A stretch of 64,000 nucleotides of DNA, taken from positions 12,378-76,377 of the forward strand of contig CAXXVO010000020.1 of the NCBI GenBank assembly GCA_963422645.2. Reading direction: 5' to 3'. Position numbers and translations under genes: made by a program. Each line of letters begins with the position of its first letter. Position 1 is the first letter of the stretch. Source of the stretch: Alphaproteobacteria bacterium. GTDB taxonomy: Bacteria; Pseudomonadota; Alphaproteobacteria; UBA828. Below are positions 7,224 to 62,900 of the stretch, piece after piece. The notes beneath the pieces are model-generated. The model was not told where the DNA came from. It searched no databases and saw nothing but the letters and a program-made list of their open reading frames with translations.

Positions 7224-7479
7224 GGATGTAACCTCCTCGAACGGGCATTCAGGACGAACTAAAGGAAAATTGGAATTCGCGCCCAGGCTCCATCGCCGCT
7301 AACGCCAGTACACCGCATTACCCCCGATAACCGTTATCGCCGTCAAGAAGGGCCATCAATGGCCTGTCCGATTTGGTGGAGGCTTAACAACGGCTGCGAT
7401 CATGAAGCTCCCGCCGCGCCGTCGGTAGGATGGACCGGGAGCGAAAAGTGGAAAATCGCTCCGAAAAATGTGGCAAACT

Positions 7480-9994
7480 CAGACTTCCTGACCTCGTGAT
7501 GCTGGCTGTTCTGGGCAGCGTGCCGGGAACTCCTTGAATTCTGATACATTTCGGTTGTTTCAGGCGGTTTTTCGCTGGGTGTCGCGCCCGAGGTCTGATA
7601 TTATAATTTGATACCAATTGCACGGTCTCAACCATGCCCAGTACCCTCCCAATGTGCCCTCCAGAGGCGGTCTCGATCGGCAACAGCTGCTTCGCCGTCC
7701 TGATCTCGGACGACACCTTCACCTACTTTTCCAACCTCATTCCCTTTGACAGCCACGCCGCCGATGACCGCACGGCCATGCTCTTGCGGATCGGCCGCCT
7801 CGCGGCGATCAGCGCGGTCTCGCCGCAGGAACTGGCTGACGCTTTCGCTGTCTCGCGCGCGACGGTGCAGCGCGCACGACGGCGCTACCTGGCCGAGGGC
7901 GAAGCGGGGTTCATGAAGCCCCGGCGCGGTCGCGGGCCGTCGGTGTTCACTCCGGAGTTGGCGGAGAAGGCGACGGCGTTGCTGGCATCGGGCCTGAGCG
8001 GCTCTGCGGCGGCCCGGGTTCTCGGCGTGTCAGCGCCATCGGTCAACAAGTGGCGCCGTCAGGGACTGATCGGCAACACGGAGGCGGATGGGGAGCCCGG
8101 ACGCTCAGCGCTGGCTGCGCCGCCTGACGCGGGTGCGGCTCCTGAAGGCCGTGTCGATGAAGAGAGTACCGGTGCCCCGGGGCCGGAGACGGCGCCGGGG
8201 CTGGAAGCGCAGCCGCAAACGGATCGCAGCGCGCGCGATCGGCGGGACCGGCAGGCGCCGATGGGGCGTGCGACTTGCGATGTTCCGGCTCGGGTTCTGG
8301 CCAGTTGTGGACAGGCGGGGCCGGTCGAACCGCAGTTCGCCGCCGCCGCCCGCGGTGTCCGCTTCGGCGGCGTGCTCGCCGCCCTGCCGGCCCTGCTGAA
8401 GGAAGGTCTTCTCTCCGAGACCGGTCTCCTGCCATTGCTGCCGAAGGGCTATTACGGCTTGCCTACGATCCTGCTCTTCCTGGCCTTCATGACCTTGGCG
8501 CGGGTGCGCAACCCCGAGAGCCTGCGCTACCAGGCGCCGGGCGAATGGGGCGCCATTCTCGGCCTCGATCGCTGCCCCGAGGTCAAGACGCTGCGCCGCA
8601 AGATCGCTCTCATCGCCGACGACGAGGCCGGCGTGCGGGCGTGGCAGCTCGCCCTTGCCAGGCGCTGGCAGGCGCCGACGAGCCGGAGCTCTGGGCGACG
8701 CTGGCCATCGACGGGCACGTCAAGGTCTACTCCGGCCGCAAGGGGCGCTTGCCCAAGCACTTCGTCTCGCGCGAGAAGCTGTGCCTGCCGGCGAGCGCCA
8801 GCTACTGGATCAACGCTCTGGGCGGCAAGCCGCTGCTCTGTCTGCACAAGCCGCTGGACCCGAAGATGGTCGCGGCCATCGAAGCCGACGTGGTGCCGGC
8901 GCTGCAGGAGCTTGGGATCGTTGGCGCCGGGGCGCCGGACCTGACCGCCGAGCATCCCGGCCAGCCGGCGCTCACCCTGGTCTTCGACCGCGAGGGCTGG
9001 AGCCCGGATCTGTTCCGCCGGCTGGCGAGGCGCGGCGTCGCCTGCCTGACCTGGCACAAGAACTTCAGGGGCGAGGACTGGCCGGCCGAGGACTTCGGCG
9101 CGATGACCGTTCCCATTCACGGACCGGCGGCGGACGGCAGCGCCACCATGCGGCTGGCTGAGAAGCCGGTGACGTTGCCGAACGGCTTCAGGGTGCGCCA
9201 GATCCGCCGCCTGCTCGACAACGGCCGTCAGGTGCCGCTGATCACCACCGATCCGCACAAGCCGATGGCTGAGGTTGCGGGCGCCATGTTCTCGCGCTGG
9301 TCGCAGGAGAACTTCTTCAAGTACATGCGTGACGAGTTCAATCTCGACGCCCTGCCGACCCACGAGCTCGAGCCTCTCGATCCCGCCGCCATGGTCGTCA
9401 ACCCGCTGCGGCGGGCCTATGACAAGGCAATCCATCGCCTCGACCGCCAGCTTGGCCGCCTGCGCAACCGCATCGCCGACACGGCCCGGAAGAAGCAGCC
9501 GACGGCGGAACTCAGGAGGGAAGTCAGGGACCTCCAGGATGTCCGCGACATCGTCAGGGCCAGCCGCAGGGAGACGCCCAAGCACTGCCGGGCCGGCGCG
9601 ACCTCGACGAAGCCGAGCAGCTCGATGCCTTGCCCGCGCGCGAGCGCCTCCTCCTCGACGTCATCCGGATGATCGCCTACCGCGCCGAAACCCGCATGAT
9701 GCTTCCCGTCATGCAGGCGCAGGGCCACAAGCCCCATCCCCGGAAACTGCTTCAAGCGCTGCTCACCGCCGATGCCGACATCCTGCCGGATCCTGGCAAT
9801 GGCCTCCTGCGGGTCCACATTCTTGGCCTCGCAAACGACGCCTGCGACCGTTGGATCGATGCGGTTCTGAGCGACCTGAACGCCACCGAAACGGTCTTCC
9901 CCGGCACCCGTCTGCGCATAGTCTATGACATCGACGGGGCCTCGGAATCCGCGCGGCTCGTGTCACCTAAAATCAGCAGAGGTCAGGAAGTCTG
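7480..9994 (+). mobile_element. ISX copy 1 (unassigned DDE IS)
   Basis: 16-bp TIR CAGACTTCCTGACCTC; transposase from 7634 with frameshifts near 8673 and 9598. Confidence 0.92.
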
Positions 9995-10294: not shown

Positions 10295-10732
10295 GTAACT
10301 GCCCAGGTACCCCCTCTCTCTTATGGAACAAGCCAGTTCCTTTTGCGTCAACGCCCCCACGCCGCGGGGGTGCCTACTCTCTTGAGCGCGAGAGGATGAT
10401 GAACGCCGCGTCGCGAACAAGATGAGAGGACAGCGATACTCAGGATGAGCCGGAGAAGTTCAGGAGCGCAGTATAGGGATCAGCTGCATCGGTTCCGGGT
10501 GCGCCAGGATTTGCAGGATGTTCCAGCCTTGCTTTCGAGCGGTGACGATGACGCTGCGCATTCCGGCGAAGTTGCAGGCGCCTTGCAGGGAGCGGAAGCC
10601 GCCTGAGATCTTCTCATGCACTTTGTTCATACGGATGTCACGCTCCGCCTCGTTATTCGTGAACGGCGTGCGCAGGTCGGTGAGGAAGCGCAGGCAGCCC
10701 TCCTTATGCTTTTGAAGGCGGCGCGCGAGGTT
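10295..10732 (-). mobile_element. IS66-A 3' remnant
   Basis: reverse complement of about 44337-44774, including IR GTAACTGCCCAGGT; cut by ISX copy 2. Confidence 0.9.
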
Positions 10733-13245
10733 CAGACTTCCTGACCTCGTGATGCTGGCTGTTCTGGGCAGCGTGCCGGGAACTCCTTGAATTCTGATAC
10801 ATTTCGGTTGTTTCAGGCGGTTTTTCGCTGGGTGTCGCGCCCGAGGTCTGATATTATAATTTGATACCAATTGCACGGTCTCAACCATGCCCAGTACCCT
10901 CCCAATGTGCCCTCCAGAGGCGGTCTCGATCGGCAACAGCTGCTTCGCCGTCCTGATCTCGGACGACACCTTCACCTACTTTTCCAACCTCATTCCCTTT
11001 GACAGCCACGCCGCCGATGACCGCACGGCCATGCTCTTGCGGATCGGCCGCCTCGCGGCGATCAGCGCGGTCTCGCCGCAGGAACTGGCTGACGCTTTCG
11101 CTGTCTCGCGCGCGACGGTGCAGCGCGCACGACGGCGCTACCTGGCCGAGGGCGAAGCGGGGTTCATGAAGCCCCGGCGCGGTCGCGGGCCGTCGGTGTT
11201 CACTCCGGAGTTGGCGGAGAAGGCGACGGCGTTGCTGGCATCGGGCCTGAGCGGCTCTGCGGCGGCCCGGGTTCTCGGCGTGTCAGCGCCATCGGTCAAC
11301 AAGTGGCGCCGTCAGGGACTGATCGGCAACACGGAGGCGGATGGGGAGCCCGGACGCTCAGCGCTGGCTGCGCCGCCTGACGCGGGTGCGGCTCCTGAAG
11401 GCCGTGTCGATGAAGAGAGTACCGGTGCCCCGGGGCCGGAGACGGCGCCGGGGCTGGAAGCGCAGCCGCAAACGGATCGCAGCGCGCGCGATCGGCGGGA
11501 CCGGCAGGCGCCGATGGGGCGTGCGACTTGCGATGTTCCGGCTCGGGTTCTGGCCAGTTGTGGACAGGCGGGGCCGGTCGAACCGCAGTTCGCCGCCGCC
11601 GCCCGCGGTGTCCGCTTCGGCGGCGTGCTCGCCGCCCTGCCGGCCCTGCTGAAGGAAGGTCTTCTCTCCGAGACCGGTCTCCTGCCATTGCTGCCGAAGG
11701 GCTATTACGGCTTGCCTACGATCCTGCTCTTCCTGGCCTTCATGACCTTGGCGCGGGTGCGCAACCCCGAGAGCCTGCGCTACCAGGCGCCGGGCGAATG
11801 GGGCGCCATTCTCGGCCTCGATCGCTGCCCCGAGGTCAAGACGCTGCGCCGCAAGATCGCTCTCATCGCCGACGACGAGGCCGGCGTGCGGGCGTGGCAG
11901 CTCGCCCTTGCCAGGCGCTGGCAGGCGCCGACGAGCCGGAGCTCTGGGCGACGCTGGCCATCGACGGGCACGTCAAGGTCTACTCCGGCCGCAAGGGGCG
12001 CTTGCCCAAGCACTTCGTCTCGCGCGAGAAGCTGTGCCTGCCGGCACGCGCCAGCTACTGGATCAACGCTCTGGGCGGCAAGCCGCTGCTCTGTCTGCAC
12101 AAGCCGCTGGACCCGAAGATGGTCGCGGCCATCGAAGCCGACGTGGTGCCGGCGCTGCAGGAGCTTGGGATCGTTGGCGCCGGGGCGCCGGACCTGACCG
12201 CCGAGCATCCCGGCCAGCCGGCGCTCACCCTGGTCTTCGACCGCGAGGGCTGGAGCCCGGATCTGTTCCGCCGGCTGGCGAGGCGCGGCGTCGCCTGCCT
12301 GACCTGGCACAAGAACTTCAGGGGCGAGGACTGGCCGGCCGAGGACTTCGGCGCGATGACCGTTCCCATTCACGGACCGGCGGCGGACGGCAGCGCCACC
12401 ATGCGGCTGGCTGAGAAGCCGGTGACGTTGCCGAACGGCTTCAGGGTGCGCCAGATCCGCCGCCTGCTCGACAACGGCCGTCAGGTGCCGCTGATCACCA
12501 CCGATCCGCACAAGCCGATGGCTGAGGTTGCGGGCGCCATGTTCTCGCGCTGGTCGCAGGAGAACTTCTTCAAGTACATGCGTGACGAGTTCAATCTCGA
12601 CGCCCTGCCGACCCACGAGCTCGAGCCTCTCGATCCCGCCGCCATGGTCGTCAACCCGCTGCGGCGGGCCTATGACAAGGCAATCCATCGCCTCGACCGC
12701 CAGCTTGGCCGCCTGCGCAACCGCATCGCCGACACGGCCCGGAAGAAGCAGCCGACGGCGGAACTCAGGAGGGAAGTCAGGGACCTCCAGGATGTCCGCG
12801 ACATCGTCAGGGCCAGCCGCAGGGAGACGCCCAAGCACTGCCGGGCCGGCGACCTCGACGAAGCCGAGCAGCTCGATGCCTTGCCCGCGCGCGAGCGCCT
12901 CCTCCTCGACGTCATCCGGATGATCGCCTACCGCGCCGAAACCCGCATGATGATTCCCGTCATGCAGGCGCAGGGCCACAAGCCCCATCCCCGGAAACTG
13001 CTTCAAGCGCTGCTCACCGCCGATGCCGACATCCTGCCGGATCCTGGCAATGGCCTCCTGCGGGTCCACATTCTTGGCCTCGCAAACGACGCCTGCGACC
13101 GTTGGATCGATGCGGTTCTGAGCGACCTGAACGCCACCGAAACGGTCTTCCCCGGCACCCGTCTGCGCATAGTCTACGACATCGACGGGGCCTCGGAATC
13201 CGCGCGGCTCGTGTCACCTAAAATCAGCAGAGGTCAGGAAGTCTG
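10733..13245 (+). mobile_element. ISX copy 2
   Basis: same TIRs; transposase 10887-13246 with one frameshift near 11926. Confidence 0.93.
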
Positions 13246-44805: not shown

Positions 44806-46643
44806 GTTTCTCGTTCGGAGTTGGTGGAAAGGGCTTGACGGGAATTTCGGGAAATGACTCAACAACGACATGAGCAATCCCGAGTCGCCGCGCGGCCCTT
44901 CGACGGGAGCAGCGCCCGAAACGCCCGCGCAGAAGATCGCCCGCCTGGAGGAGGAGAACGCCCGGCTTCGGGAGGAAAATGCCTGGCTTCGGCAGCAGAA
45001 CGCGCGGCTGGAAGAGCAAGTCGCGCGTCTCGTCGAGCGCATCGAGGAGTTGGAGCGCCGTCTCGGCCTCAACAGCGGCAACAGCGGCAAGCCGCCTTCG
45101 AGCGATGGGCTGAGGAAGCCGAATTCGAAGCGGCGAACCCGAAGCCTGCGCGGCAAATCGGGCCGCAAGCCCGGTGGCCAGCCCGGCCACAAGGGCAAGA
45201 CGCTGCGCCGCGCCGATCACCCGGGTCGGGTGAAGGATCACGTCCCGGCTTCCTGCAAGGGATGCGGTTCGCCGCTTTCGGACGCGGCCAGGGCGGGAAC
45301 GCCCGTCGCCCGCCAGGTGTTCGATCTGCCCGAGCCGAGCCCCCTGGAGGTGACCGAGCACCGGGCGCATGCCAAGTGCTGCGGGCATTGCGGGACGGTG
45401 ACCCGGGCGGCGTTCCCCGACGGGGTGTCGGCGCCGGTGCAGTACGGCCCGCGCATTGCCGGGGTGGCGGTCTACCTTCAGCACGCTCACTTCCTGCCGG
45501 AGGATCGGCTGTCGCAGGTGATGGCCGAGCTCTTCGGCGCGCCGGTGACGGCTGCGACGTTGGCGACGATGAGCGAGAGGGCGGCCGAGCGGCTGCGGGA
45601 CGCGGCCTTGCACATACAGGACCTGGCGGCGGGCACGGCGCGGGTGAAACACATGGACGAGACCGGCTTGCGGATCGGCGGTCAGACGCAGTGGCTTCAT
45701 GTGATCTGCACGCCGCTGCTGGCGGCGTACCGGGTCAGCGGCAAGCGCGGCGCCCTGCTCTCGGGTGTCTCCGGCATCGTCGTGCACGATCACTGGAAGC
45801 CGTACTTCGCGATGGAAGGGGTGGAGCACGGCCTGTGCAACGCCCATCACCTGCGGGAGTTGCAGGCGCTGGTGGACATCGAAGGGGAGGCTTGGGCCCG
45901 GCGGATGCAGCAGCTCCTGCGCCGAGCCAATCACGCCGCCCGCATCGCGCTGGACAAGGATATCGCCGTTCCGGCGAGGCTTGTGGCGCTGATCGAGCGC
46001 CGATACGACGAGATCATCGCCGATGCGCTGGCCTTTCACGAGAGCCAACCACCGTTCTCGCCGGGCAAGAGGAAGAAGCGCCGGAAGCGAAGGATCGGTC
46101 ACAATCCGGCCTTGAGGCTGCGCGACCACAAATGCGCGGTGCTCCGGTTCCTGATCGACCTCGAGGTCGGGTTCACGAACAACGAGGCCGAGCGCGACCT
46201 TCGGATGATGAAGCTGCGCCAGAAGATCTCCGGGGGCTTCCGGTCCGCGCAGGGGGCCGAGAACTTCGCCATCCTGCGCAGCGTCATCACCACCGCCAGA
46301 AAGCAGGGCTGGAATATCATCGAAGCCCTGACCAGCCCATCGGATCGGCTCATCGCCACCGTCAAGTGCGCGTAAGCTCACCTGGCACGGGTTCTCCAAC
46401 AGCGGAGCCATTCTCATAAACGATCATGGTCGACGCCGTGCTGGACCACCCCATAGAATGAAAATCGGTGCCCGTCGCGCGGGCGGACTTCGGGCCACAT
46501 CGGGGTAGCTTACCGGTCGCAGTCCGCAAGAGGGGCATCGTGAGCTGTGAAACCCGGCGACCCCAGAGGAGCACACGGGCGTCGCGTGGGTAGCGTTGTG
46601 CCGAATCCCAGAGAATTTTCACAGCAAGAACCTGGGCAGTTAC
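44806..46643 (+). mobile_element. IS66-B (transposase 44870-46375), left end lost
   Basis: 501-aa IS66 transposase; right IR ends at 46643; the full left end is visible in the copy ending at 52744. Confidence 0.92.
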
Positions 46644-46644
46644 G

Positions 46645-46999
46645 AAACAGTCATGGTCCCCGCGGTTCTGAGCCACCCCGTGGCATGAAACAGGAGCGGT
46701 TCGGCTGACGTTTTCCTTGCGCTTGCACCCATTTGCCGTGTCAGGATGGGTATTGGCGGAGGTGGGGACGTGTGAGCGTCGTTATATCGGTGACGTAGTT
46801 CCCGATGACAAAACTGCTTCCGGCGGCCGGCTCCGCACCCCGTATTGTACCCGGCCCGTGGCCGTGGACGCGCGGCAAATTGCACCGCACCCGCTCGTCG
46901 GATGCGTGTTCTTCCGACCGCTGTCCCCGCCTCCACCGTGGCGATGCCACGGCGTGATCGTACGCCGCCGTGGCGAGAGCGCAAATGAGGAGGAAGGCG
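46645..46999 (-). ncRNA. candidate bridge/seek RNA region in the IS110 left end
   Basis: 355-bp non-coding end containing antisense matches to the element ends; strand is inferred. Confidence 0.5.
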
Positions 47000-48250
47000 A
47001 TGAAGACGGAAGGCTTGCACGTCGTCCGGCCGCGCGCGGCGGGTCTGGACGTGCACAAGATGGAGATCACCGCGACGGTTCGCCTCTGTGAGGGCGAGGG
47101 TGAGCCGGTGGTGGAGACGCGCTGCTTCGGCACGCTGCCGAGCGGTCTGGAGGAGATGGTCGCGTGGCTGACCGGTCACGGCGTCGAGGCTGCGGTGATG
47201 GAAGGGACCGGGGTCTACTGGCAGGCGCCCTTCGCGGCCCTGGAGGCGGCCGGGCTCGAGGCGATCCTGGTGCATGCGCGTCAGGTGAAGCAGTTGAAGG
47301 GGCGCAAGACCGACGTGGCGGACAGCGTGTGGCTGGCCTGCGTGTGCCAGTTCGGGCTCTGCACGCCTTCCCACGTTCCGCCTGAGCCGTTCCGGGAGCT
47401 GCGCGCACTGAGCCGCCAGCGCCGCGTCCTGGTCAGGCAGCGCTCCGCCGTGCGCAACCGCGTGCAGAAGATCATCGACCGCGCCGGTGCGCGCATCGGC
47501 GGCATCCTCTCCGACGTCTTCGGCGTCAACGGCCGGAAGATCCTCGACGGCCTGGCGCAGGGGACGGCGCGCGAGGTCATCCTCGCCTCGCTCACCAGCC
47601 ACGTTGCGAACAAGCTGGAGGGGCTCGGCGAGGCGCTCACCCTGAGCCTGGGCGACAACGACCGCTTCATGCTCAACGACCTGCTGGAGGAGCATGACGC
47701 GCTTGAGGCGCGCATCGCGTCCTACACCAGGAAGATCGACGGGCAGATGACACCGTGGGAGGAGCAGCTCCGTCTGCTGACCACCATCCCCGGCATCGAC
47801 CGCACCGCCGCCTCGACCATCCTCATCGAGATCGGCCCCGACATCGGCGTGTTCGCCTCCAAGGAGCACTTCGCCGCCTGGGCCGGGCTCTGCCCCGGCA
47901 ACAACGAGAGCGGGGGCAAGCGCCGCAACGCACGCACCCGCATGGGCTCCAAGACCCTGCGCGCCTGCCTCGTCGAGTGTGCCCACGGCGCGGCCCGAAC
48001 CAAGGGGTGCCAGTTCGAGGCTCATCACCGCGCCCTCGCCGCCCGGCGCGGCTACAAGCGCGCCATCGTCGCCGGCGCTCACAAGATGCTGCGCATCATC
48101 TATGTGGTGCTCAAGACCGGCAGGCCCTACTACGACCGCACGGCCGACTACGACGCTCTGATGGTCAAGCGCAACGCTCCTCGGTGGATCCGCATGCTCC
48201 GCCGCTACGGCTACATCGAGCCCGTAGGCGCGGAACTCAAGGCCGCCTGA
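47000..48250 (+). CDS. IS110 DEDD recombinase
   Basis: GLDVHK, MEGTG, KTDVAD and C-terminal GLCPGNNESGGK serine loop; GAGGAGG RBS. Confidence 0.95.
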   Translation: MKTEGLHVVRPRAAGLDVHKMEITATVRLCEGEGEPVVETRCFGTLPSGLEEMVAWLTGHGVEAAVMEGTGVYWQAPFAALEAAGLEAILVHARQVKQLKGRKTDVADSVWLACVCQFGLCTPSHVPPEPFRELRALSRQRRVLVRQRSAVRNRVQKIIDRAGARIGGILSDVFGVNGRKILDGLAQGTAREVILASLTSHVANKLEGLGEALTLSLGDNDRFMLNDLLEEHDALEARIASYTRKIDGQMTPWEEQLRLLTTIPGIDRTAASTILIEIGPDIGVFASKEHFAAWAGLCPGNNESGGKRRNARTRMGSKTLRACLVECAHGAARTKGCQFEAHHRALAARRGYKRAIVAGAHKMLRIIYVVLKTGRPYYDRTADYDALMVKRNAPRWIRMLRRYGYIEPVGAELKAA

Positions 48251-48437
48251 GCGGCCCGCATCTCGTCAGCCGGCTACGCGGGACCGCTTCGGACCACATC
48301 GGGGAAGTCCACCGCTCGTCTCCGCCGCGCCGACCCTGGCGGTCTCAGCCAACGCCGTGACCTCGGGGTTGGAGCGTCACCGCGCGTCCCTCGCCAGAAT
48401 CTGTTTCACGGCAAATCCTCCCATTTGCGCATAGTTT

Positions 48438-50952
48438 CAGACTTCCTGACCTCGTGATGCTGGCTGTTCTGGGCAGCGTGCCGGGAACTCCTTGAATTCT
48501 GATACATTTCGGTTGTTTCAGGCGGTTTTTCGCTGGGTGTCGCGCCCGAGGTCTGATATTATAATTTGATACCAATTGCACGGGGTCTCAACCATGCCCA
48601 GTACCCTCCCAATGTGCCCTCCAGAGGCGGTCTCGATCGGCAACAGCTGCTTCGCCGTCCTGATCTCGGACGACACCTTCACCTACTTTTCCAACCTCAT
48701 TCCCTTTGACAGCCACGCCGCCGATGACCGCACGGCCATGCTCTTGCGGATCGGCCGCCTCGCGGCGATCAGCGCGGTCTCGCCGCAGGAACTGGCTGAC
48801 GCTTTCGCTGTCTCGCGCGCGACGGTGCAGCGCGCACGACGGCGCTACCTGGCCGAGGGCGAAGCGGGGTTCATGAAGCCCCGGCGCGGTCGCGGGCCGT
48901 CGGTGTTCACTCCGGAGTTGGCGGAGAAGGCGACGGCGTTGCTGGCATCGGGCCTGAGCGGCTCTGCGGCGGCCCGGGTTCTCGGCGTGTCAGCGCCATC
49001 GGTCAACAAGTGGCGCCGTCAGGGACTGATCGGCAACACGGAGGCGGATGGGGAGCCCGGACGCTCAGCGCTGGCTGCGCCGCCTGACGCGGGTGCGGCT
49101 CCTGAAGGCCGTGTCGATGAAGAGAGTACCGGTGCCCCGGGGCCGGAGACGGCGCCGGGGCTGGAAGCGCAGCCGCAAACGGATCGCAGCGCGCGCGATC
49201 GGCGGGACCGGCAGGCGCCGATGGGGCGTGCGACTTGCGATGTTCCGGCTCGGGTTCTGGCCAGTTGTGGACAGGCGGGGCCGGTCGAACCGCAGTTCGC
49301 CGCCGCCGCCCGCGGTGTCCGCTTCGGCGGCGTGCTCGCCGCCCTGCCGGCCCTGCTGAAGGAAGGTCTTCTCTCCGAGACCGGTCTCCTGCCATTGCTG
49401 CCGAAGGGCTATTACGGCTTGCCTACGATCCTGCTCTTCCTGGCCTTCATGACCTTGGCGCGGGTGCGCAACCCCGAGAGCCTGCGCTACCAGGCGCCGG
49501 GCGAATGGGGCGCCATTCTCGGCCTCGATCGCTGCCCCGAGGTCAAGACGCTGCGCCGCAAGATCGCTCTCATCGCCGACGACGAGGCCGGCGTGCGGGC
49601 GTGGCAGCTCGCCCTTGCCAGGCGCTGGCAGGCGCCGACGAGCCGGAGCTCTGGGCGACGCTGGCCATCGACGGGCACGTCAAGGTCTACTCCGGCCGCA
49701 AGGGGCGCTTGCCCAAGCACTTCGTCTCGCGCGAGAAGCTGTGCCTGCCGGCGAGCGCCAGCTACTGGATCAACGCTCTGGGCGGCAAGCCGCTGCTCTG
49801 TCTGCACAAGCCGCTGGACCCGAAGATGGTCGCGGCCATCGAAGCCGACGTGGTGCCGGCGCTGCAGGAGCTTGGGATCGTTGGCGCCGGGGCGCCGGAC
49901 CTGACCGCCGAGCATCCCGGCCAGCCGGCGCTCACCCTGGTCTTCGACCGCGAGGGCTGGAGCCCGGATCTGTTCCGCCGGCTGGCGAGGCGCGGCGTCG
50001 CCTGCCTGACCTGGCACAAGAACTTCAGGGGCGAGGACTGGCCGGCCGAGGACTTCGGCGCGATGACCGTTCCCATTCACGGACCGGCGGCGGACGGCAG
50101 CGCCACCATGCGGCTGGCTGAGAAGCCGGTGACGTTGCCGAACGGCTTCAGGGTGCGCCAGATCCGCCGCCTGCTCGACAACGGCCGTCAGGTGCCGCTG
50201 ATCACCACCGATCCGCACAAGCCGATGGCTGAGGTTGCGGGCGCCATGTTCTCGCGCTGGTCGCAGGAGAACTTCTTCAAGTACATGCGTGACGAGTTCA
50301 ATCTCGACGCCCTGCCGACCCACGAGCTCGAGCCTCTCGATCCCGCCGCCATGGTCGTCAACCCGCTGCGGCGGGCCTATGACAAGGCAATCCATCGCCT
50401 CGACCGCCAGCTTGGCCGCCTGCGCAACCGCATCGCCGACACGGCCCGGAAGAAGCAGCCGACGGCGGAACTCAGGAGGGAAGTCAGGGACCTCCAGGAT
50501 GTCCGCGACATCGTCAGGGCCAGCCGCAGGGAGACGCCCAAGCACTGCCGGGCCGGCGACCTCGACGAAGCCGAGCAGCTCGATGCCTTGCCCGCGCGCG
50601 AGCGCCTCCTCCTCGACGTCATCCGGATGATCGCCTACCGCGCCGAAACCCGCATGATGCTTCCCGTCATGCAGGCGCAGGGCCACAAGCCCCATCCCCG
50701 GAAACTGCTTCAAGCGCTGCTCACCGCCGATGCCGACATCCTGCCGGATCCTGGCAATGGCCTCCTGCGGGTCCACATTCTTGGCCTCGCAAACGACGCC
50801 TGCGACCGTTGGATCGATGCGGTTCTGAGCGACCTGAACGCCACCGAAACGGTCTTCCCCGGCACCCGTCTGCGCATAGTCTACGACATCGACGGGGCCT
50901 CGGAATCCGCGCGGCTCGTGTCACCTAAAATCAGCAGAGGTCAGGAAGTCTG
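48438..50952 (+). mobile_element. ISX copy 3
   Basis: TIRs flanked by AGTTT on both sides. Confidence 0.94.
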
Positions 50953-55743: not shown

Positions 55744-57515
55744 ATTTGCCGTGAAACAGATTCTGGCGAGGGACGCGCGGTGACGCTCCAACCCCGAGGT
55801 CACGGCGTTGGCTGAGACCGCCAGGGTCGGCGCGGCGGAGACGAGCGGTGGACTTCCCCGATGTGGTCCGAAGCGGTCCCGCGTAGCCGGCTGACGAGAT
55901 GCGGGCCGCTCAGGCGGCCTTGAGTTCCGCGCCTACGGGCTCGATGTAGCCGTAGCGGCGGAGCATGCGGATCCACCGAGGAGCGTTGCGCTTGACCATC
56001 AGAGCGTCGTAGTCGGCCGTGCGGTCGTAGTAGGGCCTGCCGGTCTTGAGCACCACATAGATGATGCGCAGCATCTTGTGAGCGCCGGCGACGATGGCGC
56101 GCTTGTAGCCGCGCCGGGCGGCGAGGGCGCGGTGATGAGCCTCGAACTGGCACCCCTTGGTTCGGGCCGCGCCGTGGGCACACTCGACGAGGCAGGCGCG
56201 CAGGGTCTTGGAGCCCATGCGGGTGCGTGCGTTGCGGCGCTTGCCCCCGCTCTCGTTGTTGCCGGGGCAGAGCCCGGCCCAGGCGGCGAAGTGCTCCTTG
56301 GAGGCGAACACGCCGATGTCGGGGCCGATCTCGATGAGGATGGTCGAGGCGGCGGTGCGGTCGATGCCGGGGATGGTGGTCAGCAGACGGAGCTGCTCCT
56401 CCCACGGTGTCATCTGCCCGTCGATCTTCCTGGTGTAGGACGCGATGCGCGCCTCAAGCGCGTCATGCTCCTCCAGCAGGTCGTTGAGCATGAAGCGGTC
56501 GTTGTCGCCCAGGCTCAGGGTGAGCGCCTCGCCGAGCCCCTCCAGCTTGTTCGCAACGTGGCTGGTGAGCGAGGCGAGGATGACCTCGCGCGCCGTCCCC
56601 TGCGCCAGGCCGTCGAGGATCTTCCGGCCGTTGACGCCGAAGACGTCGGAGAGGATGCCGCCGATGCGCGCACCGGCGCGGTCGATGATCTTCTGCACGC
56701 GGTTGCGCACGGCGGAGCGCTGCCTGACCAGGACGCGGCGCTGGCGGCTCAGTGCGCGCAGCTCCCGGAACGGCTCAGGCGGAACGTGGGAAGGCGTGCA
56801 GAGCCCGAACTGGCACACGCAGGCCAGCCACACGCTGTCCGCCACGTCGGTCTTGCGCCCCTTCAACTGCTTCACCTGACGCGCATGCACCAGGATCGCC
56901 TCGAGCCCGGCCGCCTCCAGGGCCGCGAAGGGCGCCTGCCAGTAGACCCCGGTCCCTTCCATCACCGCAGCCTCGACGCCGTGACCGGTCAGCCACGCGA
57001 CCATCTCCTCCAGACCGCTCGGCAGCGTGCCGAAGCAGCGCGTCTCCACCACCGGCTCACCCTCGCCCTCACAGAGGCGAACCGTCGCGGTGATCTCCAT
57101 CTTGTGCACGTCCAGACCCGCCGCGCGCGGCCGGACGACGTGCAAGCCTTCCGTCTTCATCGCCTTCCTCCTCATTTGCGCTCTCGCCACGGCGGCGTAC
57201 GATCACGCCGTGGCATCGCCACGGTGGAGGCGGGGACAGCGGTCGGAAGAACACGCATCCGACGAGCGGGTGCGGTGCAATTTGCCGCGCGTCCACGGCC
57301 ACGGGCCGGGTACAATACGGGGTGCGGAGCCGGCCGCCGGAAGCAGTTTTGTCATCGGGAACTACGTCACCGATATAACGACGCTCACACGTCCCCACCT
57401 CCGCCAATACCCATCCTGACACGGCAAATGGGTGCAAGCGCAAGGAAAACGTCAGCCGAACCGCTCCTGTTTCATGCCACGGGGTGGCTCAGAACCGCGG
57501 GGACCATGACTGTTT
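55744..57515 (-). mobile_element. IS110-family element copy 2 (recombinase 55910-57160)
   Basis: reverse complement of copy 1 with the same protein. Confidence 0.93.
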
Positions 57516-57543
57516 TGCAAGAGGCTCGGATAACTGCCGGGCC

Positions 57544-59974: not shown

Positions 59975-62900
59975 ATGTATCAACAGGGTGGAACCATCAA
60001 ACAAGCGTTAGACAAGATCGCCTCGAACGAATACGTGCTGCCGGCGATTCAGCGGGAATTCGTTTGGGGCCCGAACCAGATTTGCATGCTGTTCGACAGC
60101 CTGATGCAGGGCTACCCCTTCGGAGAGTTCCTTTTCTGGCGCATAGCGCCCGAACGCTCGGGGGATTACCGCTATTACGGGTTCGTGAAGGACTACCACC
60201 AACGGGACAATCCCCATTGCCCCGATCTCGGCCCGTTGCCGAACCGGCAAACCACAGCCGTTCTCGACGGTCAGCAACGGTTGACCGCGTTCAACATCGG
60301 ACTGCGCGGGTCTATGGCAGTCAAGCTCCCCTATAAGTGGTGGAGCAGCCCCGACGCGTTCCCGCGTCGAGTTCTGACATTGAACTTGCTGGCACCGAAC
60401 GAACGGGATGAGGAAGGCAACTGCTACTCGTTCGATTTCATTGAAGAAAGCGGAACAGGGCGCCAGGAAGAACGGCTGTGGTTCAAGGTGTCGGACATCC
60501 TCGCCATGGACTCCGGTCCGGCCATGCTTCGCTGGCTTCTAAACAAGGACCTAGGGGAGGAGGCGCTCGATCGCGCCTATGGTGTCCTCGATCGCCTCCA
60601 TCACGTCATCCACACGGAGCCGACGGTGGCGTATTACGAGGAGACGAATCAGGAAATCGAGCACGTGCTCGCCATTTTCATCCGCCGGAACAGCGGCGGC
60701 ACGACCCTGTCCTATTCCGACCTCCTGTTGAGCATTGCCACGTCTCAATGGACCACGTTGGACGCGCGCAAGGAAGTTCACCAGTTGGTCGACGATCTCA
60801 ACCGTATCGGCCCAGGTCTCGGCCTCACAAAGGACTTCGTATTGAAGGCCGGACTCATGCTGACCGACATTGCCAGCGTCGGGTTCCAGGTTCGCAACTT
60901 CACCCGGTCCAATATGGCCGTTCTCGAAGAAAACTGGCAAAGGATTCGCGATGCCCTAGTCGAAACGGCTCAGCTGGTCACGAACTACGGGTTCGACGCA
61001 CACGGCATTCGAGCGGCGAGCGCGTTGCTACCGATTGCCTACTACATCTATCGGATCGGCGCGCCGATGGACTTCGATACCCACAGCAGGTATGCGACCG
61101 ACCGTCAGTCGATTCGCGGTTGGCTGATCAGGTCCATACTCAGACTTCCTGACCTCGTGATGCTGGCTGTTCTGGGCAGCGTGCCGGGAACTCCTTGAAT
61201 TCTGATACATTTCGGTTGTTTCAGGCGGTTTTTCGCTGGGTGTCGCGCCCGAGGTCTGATATTATAATTTGATACCAATTGCACGGTCTCAACCATGCCC
61301 AGTACCCTCCCAATGTGCCCTCCAGAGGCGGTCTCGATCGGCAACAGCTGCTTCGCCGTCCTGATCTCGGACGACACCTTCACCTACTTTTCCAACCTCA
61401 TTCCCTTTGACAGCCACGCCGCCGATGACCGCACGGCCATGCTCTTGCGGATCGGCCGCCTCGCGGCGATCAGCGCGGTCTCGCCGCAGGAACTGGCTGA
61501 CGCTTTCGCTGTCTCGCGCGCGACGGTGCAGCGCGCACGACGGCGCTACCTGGCCGAGGGCGAAGCGGGGTTCATGAAGCCCCGGCGCGGTCGCGGGCCG
61601 TCGGTGTTCACTCCGGAGTTGGCGGAGAAGGCGACGGCGTTGCTGGCATCGGGCCTGAGCGGCTCTGCGGCGGCCCGGGTTCTCGGCGTGTCAGCGCCAT
61701 CGGTCAACAAGTGGCGCCGTCAGGGACTGATCGGCAACACGGAGGCGGATGGGGAGCCCGGACGCTCAGCGCTGGCTGCGCCGCCTGACGCGGGTGCGGC
61801 TCCTGAAGGCCGTGTCGATGAAGAGAGTACCGGTGCCCCGGGGCCGGAGACGGCGCCGGGGCTGGAAGCGCAGCCGCAAACGGATCGCAGCGCGCGCGAT
61901 CGGCGGGACCGGCAGGCGCCGATGGGGCGTGCGACTTGCGATGTTCCGGCTCGGGTTCTGGCCAGTTGTGGACAGGCGGGGCCGGTCGAACCGCAGTTCG
62001 CCGCCGCCGCCCGCGGTGTCCGCTTCGGCGGCGTGCTCGCCGCCCTGCCGGCCCTGCTGAAGGAAGGTCTTCTCTCCGAGACCGGTCTCCTGCCATTGCT
62101 GCCGAAGGGCTATTACGGCTTGCCTACGATCCTGCTCTTCCTGGCCTTCATGACCTTGGCGCGGGTGCGCAACCCCGAGAGCCTGCGCTACCAGGCGCCG
62201 GGCGAATGGGGCGCCATTCTCGGCCTCGATCGCTGCCCCGAGGTCAAGACGCTGCGCCGCAAGATCGCTCTCATCGCCGACGACGAGGCCGGCGTGCGGG
62301 CGTGGCAGCTCGCCCTTGCCAGGCGCTGGCAAGGCCGACGAGCCGGAGCTCTGGGCGACGCTGGCCATCGACGGGCACGTCAAGGTCTACTCCGGCCGCA
62401 AGGGGCGCTTGCCCAAGCACTTCGTCTCGCGCGAGAAGCTGTGCCTGCCGGCGAGCGCCAGCTACTGGATCAACGCTCTGGGCGGCAAGCCGCTGCTCTG
62501 TCTGCACAAGCCGCTGGACCCGAAGATGGTCGCGGCCATCGAAGCCGACGTGGTGCCGGCGCTGCAGGAGCTTGGGATCGTTGGCGCCGGGGCGCCGGAC
62601 CTGACCGCCGAGCATCCCGGCCAGCCGGCGCTCACCCTGGTCTTCGACCGCGAGGGCTGGAGCCCGGATCTGTTCCGCCGGCTGGCGAGGCGCGGCGTCG
62701 CCTGCCTGACCTGGCACAAGAACTTCAGGGGCGAGGACTGGCCGGCCGAGGACTTCGGCGCGATGACCGTTCCCATTCACGGACCGGCGGCGGACGGCAG
62801 CGCCACCATGCGGCTGGCTGAGAAGCCGGTGACGTTGCCGAACGGCTTCAGGGTGCGCCAGATCCGCCGCCTGCTCGACAACGGCCGTCAGGTGCCGCTG

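Follow-up and report, generated by a model that had tools for sequence, protein, structure and literature searches.

A probable sense-strand bridge RNA with short guides in the left end of a multicopy IS110-family element

Bridge RNAs are under development as programmable recombination tools, and the natural diversity of these molecules sets the design space for such efforts. The locus considered here lies in a 64,000-nt stretch of DNA from an alphaproteobacterium of the UBA828 lineage (contig CAXXVO010000020.1, positions 12,378 to 76,377; hereafter the window), where an element of the IS110 family occupies positions 46645 to 48412 of the plus strand. In IS621, according to Durrant et al. 2024 (PMC11208160) and Hiraizumi et al. 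2024 (PMC11208158), the left guides of the bridge RNA pair with the bottom strand and the right guides with the top strand, each including the core. PMC11208160 also notes a donor guide within a multiloop for many IS1111 elements, and Siddiquee et al. 2024 (PMC11187229) state that the order of the two target matches is reversed between the IS1111-type and the IS110-type seekRNAs. As discussed in more detail below, the element in the window is an insertion sequence, active or very recently active, whose left end very probably specifies a bridge RNA of canonical polarity. It is an IS110-family bridge RNA element with some variant architecture, most likely not with the antisense RNA that an initial annotation of the window proposed, and the guide RNA core most likely lies about 110 bases further into the element than that annotation placed the RNA.

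The ends of the element are defined by its many copies. The genome that includes the window (G000; 23 contigs, 5.9 Mb, 67% G+C) contains 48 near-identical copies, giving 48 left and 48 right ends, and these are concordant from AAACAGTCATGG to CACGGCAA and divergent beyond. They are distributed over 37 loci that are solo copies or the first members of arrays, plus 11 head-to-tail junctions. The plus-strand copy in the window (46645..48412) measures 1768 bp including the left copy of an AA core at 46645-46, and the second core copy, at 48413-14, precedes the right flank. An identical copy lies on the minus strand at 55748..57515 (inverted repeat I1, 100% over 1777 nt), the stretches 46640-48416 and 55744-57520 being inverted and complementary at every position. 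Relatives with 81-98% DNA identity begin and end at the same bases as the window element, and the repeat period of tandem copies is 1768 or 1769 bp. The initial annotation had set the ends from two matching 1772-bp copies; the copies are indeed identical, but the right end so drawn is 2 nt too long, for A48415 and T48416 must be assigned to the flank because the 48 copies diverge after CACGGCAA.

Two empty paralogous sites settle how the junctions are to be parsed. The first reads ..GAGCGACAAAACGCTAG.. and has an occupied counterpart with ..GAGCGACA-AA-ACAGTC on the left and CACGGC-AA-ACGCTAG on the right; the second reads ..ATGAACAAAGTGCATG.. and corresponds to ..ATGAACA-AA-ACAGTC on the left and CACGGC-AA-GTGCATG on the right. 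Both give a left flank (LT) ending in ACA, then AA, then the right flank (RT), with no duplication beyond the core. Since these sites fix the parse, the core is AA and the element is 46645-48412. A core made of the first two of four A's, with LT ending in C, was considered and is ruled out by the empty sites, in which LT ends in A.

Target statistics were gathered over 33 distinct sites, the 37 loci minus 4 with duplicate flanks. The AA core is found at the right junction of 32 of these sites, and at the left junction both core bases are A in all 33, the single variant left junction differing at LT-1 with its core intact. On the left flank A is found at LT-1 in 32/33 sites, C at LT-2 in 33/33, A at LT-3 in 29/33 and G at LT-4 in 17/33. 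The right flank is looser, with A (24/33) or G (8/33) at RT+1, C or T at RT+2 (21/33, T alone 14/33) and G at RT+3 (15/33). The target is thus (G)ACA-AA-R, which is very short for the IS110 family, and the specificity is very low. Two copies depart from this pattern. At the plus-strand copy in the window the last base of the left flank, 46644, is G and not A (TTACG-AA-ACAG), which is unique among the 33 sites and leaves the left target guide described below mismatched at that position. Another copy (contig C6, 66367-68141) sits inside a repeat of about 100 copies, at ..GGACAAGGATATCG.., and its right junction, CACGGC-AT-ATCG, is 3 nt short of a precise exchange and has T as the second core base; the event seems to have been imprecise or off-target.

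Joining the two ends of the element predicts a circle junction CACGGC-AA-ACAGTC, with three A's. Six of the 11 tandem junctions have three A's and the same sequence as this predicted junction, and the other five have four A's, which fits insertion into GGCA-AA-T at the right junction of a resident copy. All 11 are read as insertions beside resident copies. The head-to-tail arrays comprise 2 to 5 copies and are located at C11:48110-56956, C16:27174-32482, C10:44757-50068, C8:169699-173239, C8:727925-731468 and C5:476525-480068.

Relatives were sought in one genome per species, which gave 57 loci whose recombinases range from 97% to 42% protein identity; the hosts are mostly marine and uncultured Alphaproteobacteria, Pseudomonadales, Binatia and metagenome-assembled genomes of Vicinamibacterales. 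A metagenome scan added 15 further loci. Among 400 genomes of the same class only 3 held relatives, at 37-40% identity, and these were without the conserved RNA core; no relative above 60% identity was found in a plasmid collection; and Rfam returned no meaningful family over 45500-49500 at E=1, with 2 matches at chance level. From the 57 loci, which contain 42 distinct left-end sequences, 25 lineages were aligned (alignment A3). Near-identical copies were left out, as were L086 (its guide is split by a nested copy), L046, L054-type truncations without ends, and the partial L090 and L096. The left flank could be read for 22 of these 25 lineages and the right for 24, and in several relatives' genomes with multiple copies the element ends could be read as well. 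A second alignment (A4) covers the 5' part of the left end in 22 lineages.

At 355 bp, the left non-coding region (46645-46999) is as long as initially annotated, and the left ends of the relatives contain a block that can be aligned down to 42% protein identity. Within it lies the putative guide-bearing core of the bridge RNA (46757..46935, plus strand), which consensus folding of the 25 lineages with RNAalifold closes by a helix, P1, of 46757-66 with 46926-35. Of 1080 cells in this structure 94.2% are paired, as opposed to 40-50% when the partners are displaced by 1-3 columns; both sides have changed in 14 of 44 pairs, and none of 500 shuffles attains either the observed paired fraction or the covariation score. 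Two modules are nested within P1. The target module (46774..46819) consists of helix P2 (46774-78 with 46815-19) and hairpin P3 (46788-93 with 46800-04), which stands between two loop strands; P2 pair 28/79 occurs as U-A 14, G-C 9 and A-U 2 times, and P3 pair 49/62 as G-C 14 and A-U 11 times. The donor module (46821..46923) is formed by helix P4 (46821-30 with 46914-23), with pair 86/194 occurring as C-G 10, G-C 9, U-A 3 and A-U 1 times and pair 83/197 as G-C 9 and C-G 8 times. P4 encloses a multiloop that holds an invariant hairpin P5 (46846-55 with 46861-70), the donor guide, a hairpin SL2 (46887-46905) and a strand Z (46906-13). Next to the left target guide, on its downstream side, a local hairpin CCGG-CGG-CCGG had also been considered; it was dropped, as it is the long-range helix P4 that covaries.

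Upstream of the core, the 5' part of the left end (46647..46695) is conserved across the 22 lineages of A4. It comprises ACnnnCATGG, a covarying hairpin (stem 46654-57 with 46672-75; one pair U-A 15 and U-G 7, another G-C 19 and A-U 3), CCACCCCG and CATGAAAC, and probably makes up the RNA's 5' stem-loop part. A variable linker (46696..46755 in the window, 30-67 nt long among relatives) follows, alignable only within the near clade. Downstream of the core a hairpin-rich stretch separates it from the ribosome-binding site of the recombinase gene; one copy (C16:23518-25259) carries a 20-bp deletion there (element positions 305-326 of the query, 46944-46965 in the window), and the stretch is absent also from L036 and L070.

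Three loop strands of the core covary with the flanks and ends of their own elements. One is the left target guide, A-UGACA-AA-AC (46805..46814, plus strand), which is identical to the top strand of the left flank plus core. Across 22 lineages the guide base equals the base of the element's own flank at LT-1 in 21 (6.9 expected), at LT-2 in 17 (8.0 expected) and at LT-3 in 16 (5.7 expected), and in a blind scan of every alignment column against every flank position the left-target-guide positions ranked first for identity. The variable stretch of the guide comprises five or six bases, and individual cases, given as guide and own flank, include GATCT/ATCT, GATAT/ATAT, CACC/CACC, ACGC/ACGC, TTGAG/TGAG, CTCC/CTCC and GCT/GCT. 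A further observation comes from L086 (OZ251539.1), where a related copy is inserted precisely into another copy's left-target-guide DNA, directly after ..CCCGAAGAC and before AAAC; such nesting would be expected of DNA that mimics the target.

The left donor guide, CG-CGGC-AA-AU-UG (46871..46882, plus strand, with CGGC-AA at 46873-78), is in turn identical to the right terminus plus core as read on the top strand. The right terminus itself, CTGTTTCACGGC (48401..48412), has the left donor (LD) as its last 4-5 bases, and at LD-3, the third-last base before AA, the guide agrees with the element's own right end in 24 of 24 lineages (13.3 expected). Left donor types across the lineages are CGGC, CAGC and CAAC. 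The interior of the right end shows no guide-like enrichment (all P > 0.1).

A candidate right target guide, UCGUUAUAU (46779..46787, plus strand), is complementary to the core and right flank, its C80-G81-U82-U83 being able to pair with a core A and then with R, Y and G of the right flank. With one site per lineage, this strand has a Watson-Crick complement of at least 5 nt to its own right junction in 8 of 21 lineages (shuffled mean 2.36, P=0.0004), as in CCGCAU/ATGCGG, GAAGGU/ACCTTC, UCCUUU/AAAGGA and UCUUUG/CAAAGA. A scan of the left end by region gave 12 for this strand against 4.17 expected and no excess in any other region.

It is conceivable that the conserved left end is simply a 5' untranslated region or protein-binding DNA, and that the flank matches arise from the site preference of a protein. 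A target so short, about 6 bp, could be read out by a protein, and an inverted repeat described below could be a protein-binding site. Yet the flank bases vary between lineages and the loop strand follows them while the protein is still 60-97% identical, the helices show the compensatory changes and G-U pairs that are expected for RNA, and the curated NCBI model names the family RNA-guided. This explanation is therefore scarcely credible. The initial annotation's placing of a guide RNA gene within the left non-coding end of an RNA-guided IS110 element has, on the other hand, been strengthened by the covarying core and its guides.

The strand of the RNA is a separate matter. The bridge RNA is in all likelihood encoded on the recombinase (plus) strand, at about 46647-46935, because all three guides have the polarity of IS621 only on that strand; on the minus strand all three are inverted, and flipping the element does not rescue them. 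The helices agree. Read in the sense direction the structure pairs in 94.2% of cells, and read in the antisense direction in 84.5%, the gap coming from 124 G-U cells. P2 by itself pairs in 96.7% of cells sense and 71.5% antisense, and U-G pairs are also present in the conserved 5' hairpin near the left tip.

Several observations weigh against a sense-strand RNA of this kind. Since the lineages are interrelated, the counts of covariation make them seem more independent than they are. Against the right flank of the plus-strand copy in the window the right target guide shows no Watson-Crick match of at least 4 nt, and in this genome it fits only the site consensus, with wobble pairs required. No right donor guide was found, in that complements of the variable left-end bases are not in excess in any region; the AAAC of the left end is constant and gives no covariation signal for such a guide, and neither the J strand (46831-45) nor the Z strand (46906-13) shows a complement-type signal by eye or in a 5-mer scan. 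There is some excess of 5-mers identical to the left end (4 against 0.52 in Z, 5 against 2.38 in the 3' strand of P4), a weak signal from 28 categories tested, with L056 and L094 sharing both sequences by descent. Consensus folding barely separates the strands (-42.95 sense, -40.33 antisense), and folding the core as a single sequence favors the antisense strand (-92.2 kcal/mol, z -4.03) over the sense strand (-83.3, z -1.28). The latter method was rejected as a strand indicator, since it fails to single out the strand and by itself would lead in the wrong direction. No sigma-70-type consensus promoter was seen on either strand at a tandem junction or in the left end (0 sites). Lastly, the right target guide here (46779-87) precedes the left (46805-14), the reverse of what PMC11208160 and PMC11208158 give for IS621, where the left target guide comprises residues 50-58 and the right 77-80, and this makes the analogy inexact.

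The antisense proposal itself was built on two short motifs, and both are real. TGAAACAG is present at 46686-46693 with its reverse complement at 48401-48408, and ATTTGCCGTG at 46731-46740 with its reverse complement at 48407-48416; each has 4 matches in the window, all in the two copies, where 0.66 and 0.11, respectively, would be expected. On the earlier interpretation an antisense bridge RNA would arise from 46645-46760, with CACGGCAAAT (CACGGCAAAU as RNA, the complement of 46731-40) as its left donor guide and CTGTTT (CUGUUU, the complement of 46688-93) as its right donor guide. For the window's own ends the antisense order and polarity would suit a donor loop, being identical to the right terminus and then complementary to AAACAG, and the antisense strand of the adjoining core, as noted, folds well on its own (z -4.03).

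Comparison among lineages tells a different story for each motif. TGAAACAG belongs to GGCATGAAACAG (46682..46693, plus strand), and in all 22 lineages with both ends this region is reverse-complementary to the right terminus, at 5-8 of 8 positions. Immediately before TTTCA stands a base that changes together with its partner in the right end (G/C 11, A/T 7, C/G 2, with TTACA/TGTAA in 2). TGAAACAG is fully identical to the left end (6/6) only in the 3 lineages that have AAACAG; elsewhere 3-5 of the 6 bases agree, mostly those of the constant AAA(C), and in L047 the motif matches the right end at 8/8 positions and the left end at only 4/6. Because it follows the right end and not the left, TGAAACAG is a subterminal inverted repeat, the left copy of which lies 37 bp inside the element and the right copy at the right terminus. 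This inverted repeat may function at the DNA level or as an RNA helix within a transcript that spans the junction, a choice on which covariation is silent. Within the right end a further inverted copy of the terminal TCACGGC (48406-48412) is seen as GCCGTGA at 48361-48367, about 38 nt away.

ATTTGCCGTG, by contrast, sits in the variable linker and is present in only 9 near-clade lineages of the 22 with both ends defined. The match of its reverse complement to the right end is real, but 2 of its 10 bases fall on target bases that happen to be alike at both copies in the window. Forms of the motif in the near clade are (U/C)UGCCGUG, CUGCUGUG, CCGUUGUG, CUGUCGUG and CUGGCGUG, while CACGGC is retained at the right end (CACGGT in one). 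Four lineage types alter the 10-mer, and for an antisense RNA this would produce A-C or C-C mismatches; the variants GCTGTG, GTTGTG and GTCGTG give A-C mismatches with the unchanged right end if antisense and G-U pairs if sense. The hairpin that was to present the antisense guide, an ACCCAT/ATGGGT stem (46727-32 with 46746-51), does pair 6/6 in the window and 5/6 in the nearest relative, but in the other seven only 1-4 of 6 positions pair. The folding of 46645-46760 is no better than that of its shuffles on either strand (z +1.0 and +0.7), the region would offer no target-binding part, and the covarying guides lie elsewhere with sense polarity. With TGAAACAG tracking the right end throughout and ATTTGCCGTG confined to its 9 lineages, the alignment of homologues leaves the antisense donor loop unsupported, and an antisense bridge RNA is very improbable.

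ATTTGCCGTG is complementary to both the right junction and the RNA's own donor guide, and it might be a functional extra segment of the sense RNA, for instance an "anti-guide" in which AUUUGCCGUG pairs with CGCGGCAAAU (10 pairs, one of them G-U). Besides this double complementarity, the C-to-U variants of the motif in the near clade still pair with G, the linkers of L093 and of L079/L082 contain comparable UUGCUG segments that are complementary to CAGC-AA, and a 1-nt deletion in the window's lineage makes the match perfect. The purine at RT+1 (32/33) and the T at RT+2 (14/33) would fit AU-UU. Set against these points, the T at RT+2 is borderline once corrected for the 32 positions examined, and most lineages beyond the clade lack the linker or have an unrelated one (30 nt only in L062). 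In clade members of groups D and E the linker segment and the 5' stem-loop share an 8-nt direct repeat, CCGTGGCA, so the motif could be a degenerate duplication. Nor are linkers enriched for complements of their own right flanks: an unbiased scan found 8 lineages against 8.41 expected, and matches picked out by eye (CCAGG in L036, GAAGCC in L047, GAAC in L032) were dropped. We regard a functional extra segment as unlikely. A broader version, in which the element's family is an architectural intermediate between IS110 and IS1111, combining a bridge RNA from the left end with the reversed target guides, a multiloop donor module and a long inverted repeat whose left copy is internal, with 46731-40 in the window's lineage as a third guide-like strand that masks the donor guide or pairs with the whole right junction, and in which the 1-nt deletion contributed to the burst of 48 copies and the tandem arrays, is distinctly unlikely.

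The preferred reading, a sense-strand bridge RNA, can be put together as follows. An RNA of about 46647-46935 would consist of the conserved 5' stem-loop, the variable linker and the two guide modules, both enclosed by a single closing helix. The DEDD/serine recombinase would then exchange strands at the AA common to the target (..GACA-AA-R..) and the joined ends (..CACGGC-AA-ACAGTC..). That transcription runs in the direction of the recombinase gene, that the recombinase binds the RNA, that a circle serves as intermediate and how the exchange proceeds chemically are presumed by analogy with IS621. The target would be only about 6 bp because the guides have some 3-5 variable nt, and the low specificity and the 48 copies may likewise be put down to the shortness of the guides.

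The recombinase gene (47000..48250, plus strand) follows a ribosome-binding site, GAGGAGGAAGG, at 46988-98 and encodes 416 amino acids, with a DEDD RuvC-like domain and a Tnp domain that contains the serine. The intact DEDD and serine motifs of the initial annotation are borne out by matches of this open reading frame to PF01548 (DEDD_Tnp_IS110; E 1.8e-23, residues 14-161) and PF02371 (E 4.5e-21), by a score of 270.3 bits against a cut-off of 140 for NF033542, "IS110 family RNA-guided transposase", and by alignment with IS621. Similarity to the solved IS621 and ISCro4 proteins is weak but specific (IS621, E 6e-16). E68, D105 and D108, together with E303-S304-G305, align with the acidic residues and the ESG of IS621; D17 lies outside the aligned stretch and is invariant in 11 of 11 homologues. 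The serine of the ESG motif is a candidate equivalent of IS621 S241, going by the residue numbering in PMC11208158.

The surroundings of the element are crowded. The genome contains many other insertion sequences, one family of which has about 100 copies ending in GAACCTGGGCAGTTAC, and the IS110 copy at 46645 abuts the end of a member of this family (left flank ..CTGGGCAGTTAC followed by G). Other insertion sequences lie in the window at 7474-7923, 10727-11176, 48434-48883, 61135-61584 and elsewhere, and the window also has 4 copies of a repeat of more than 2 kb. Among the relatives, the loci L038-L052 (groups D and E, 89% DNA identity) are inserted in one repeated, partly palindromic host sequence, ..GGTCCAGCTCATAT on the left of AA and (A)CCGGACAGCAGTGGAC.. 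on the right, and thus show much greater site specificity than the element in the window; their right junctions vary between 2 and 3 A's. In L051 and L042 (OZ219865/6) duplicated fragments of the right terminus, 13 nt and about 138 nt long respectively, follow a complete right end and may be remnants of tandem copies. L082, from the same genome as L086, is the second member of a tandem pair and has a three-A junction.

For those interested in the design space of bridge RNAs, the system offers very short, wobble-rich guides with a target of about 6 bp, and a permuted target module within a left-end RNA. The 33 independent sites and 11 tandem junctions amount to an in vivo record, one that includes the junction types expected from insertion beside resident copies. 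There is also a more general lesson, that short complementarities between IS110 ends can be features of an inverted repeat and not guides, and that lineage comparison discriminates between the two. For annotation, the putative guide RNA gene may be entered at about 46647-46935 of the plus strand (core 46757-46935), with guides at 46779-87, 46805-14 and 46871-82.

Recent half-match and copy-out models of IS110 transposition, as outlined by Xie et al. 2026 (10.64898/2026.08.31.748434) and Sun et al. 2025 (10.1101/2025.10.25.684509), bear on the arrays. Half-match recombination, for which agreement with half of the bridge RNA suffices, between a circle junction and a resident end would explain the three-A tandem junctions, and the loosely matched sites as well, the arrays being the genomic end-products of any such process.

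The seekRNAs of the IS1111 type and the IS110 type (ISEc11, ISEc21), as described in PMC11187229, are likewise RNAs from a non-coding region with short matches to both target strands. We take the right-before-left order found here to be the IS1111-type order, going by that paper's statement of the reversal and not by an explicit assignment of order to type. The inverted repeat of 8-12 bp also recalls the subterminal repeats of IS1111 elements, given there as 7-17 bp, except that its left copy is at +38 to +49 and not near the tip. Repeats near both tips and an RNA downstream of the recombinase gene, the layout of the IS1111 group, are not what is seen here. In element layout, as distinct from protein phylogeny, the locus follows the IS110 group, with a left end of 355 nt, a right end of 162 nt, guides in the left end and the RNA gene upstream of the recombinase gene, and it shows no guide-like signal in the right end; the left-then-right order of target guides known from that group (IS621, ISEc21) is the feature in which it departs.

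The differences from IS621 as described in PMC11208160 and PMC11208158 are several. The core is AA in place of CT, the predicted RNA has about 290 nt and a variable linker as opposed to 177 nt, and both of its modules are nested in one closing helix. The donor guide lies in a multiloop, where IS621 has a simple internal loop, the guides are shorter, with about 3-5 variable nt, and no junction promoter is recognizable. Despite these differences the likeness is extensive. In both systems a DEDD and serine recombinase is accompanied by a guide RNA gene that lies within a long left end and, most likely here too, on the same strand as the recombinase gene; the left guides equal the top strand including a 2-nt core, and the right target guide is complementary to it; a 5' stem-loop is followed by the target module and then by the donor module; and insertion produces no duplication beyond the shared core.

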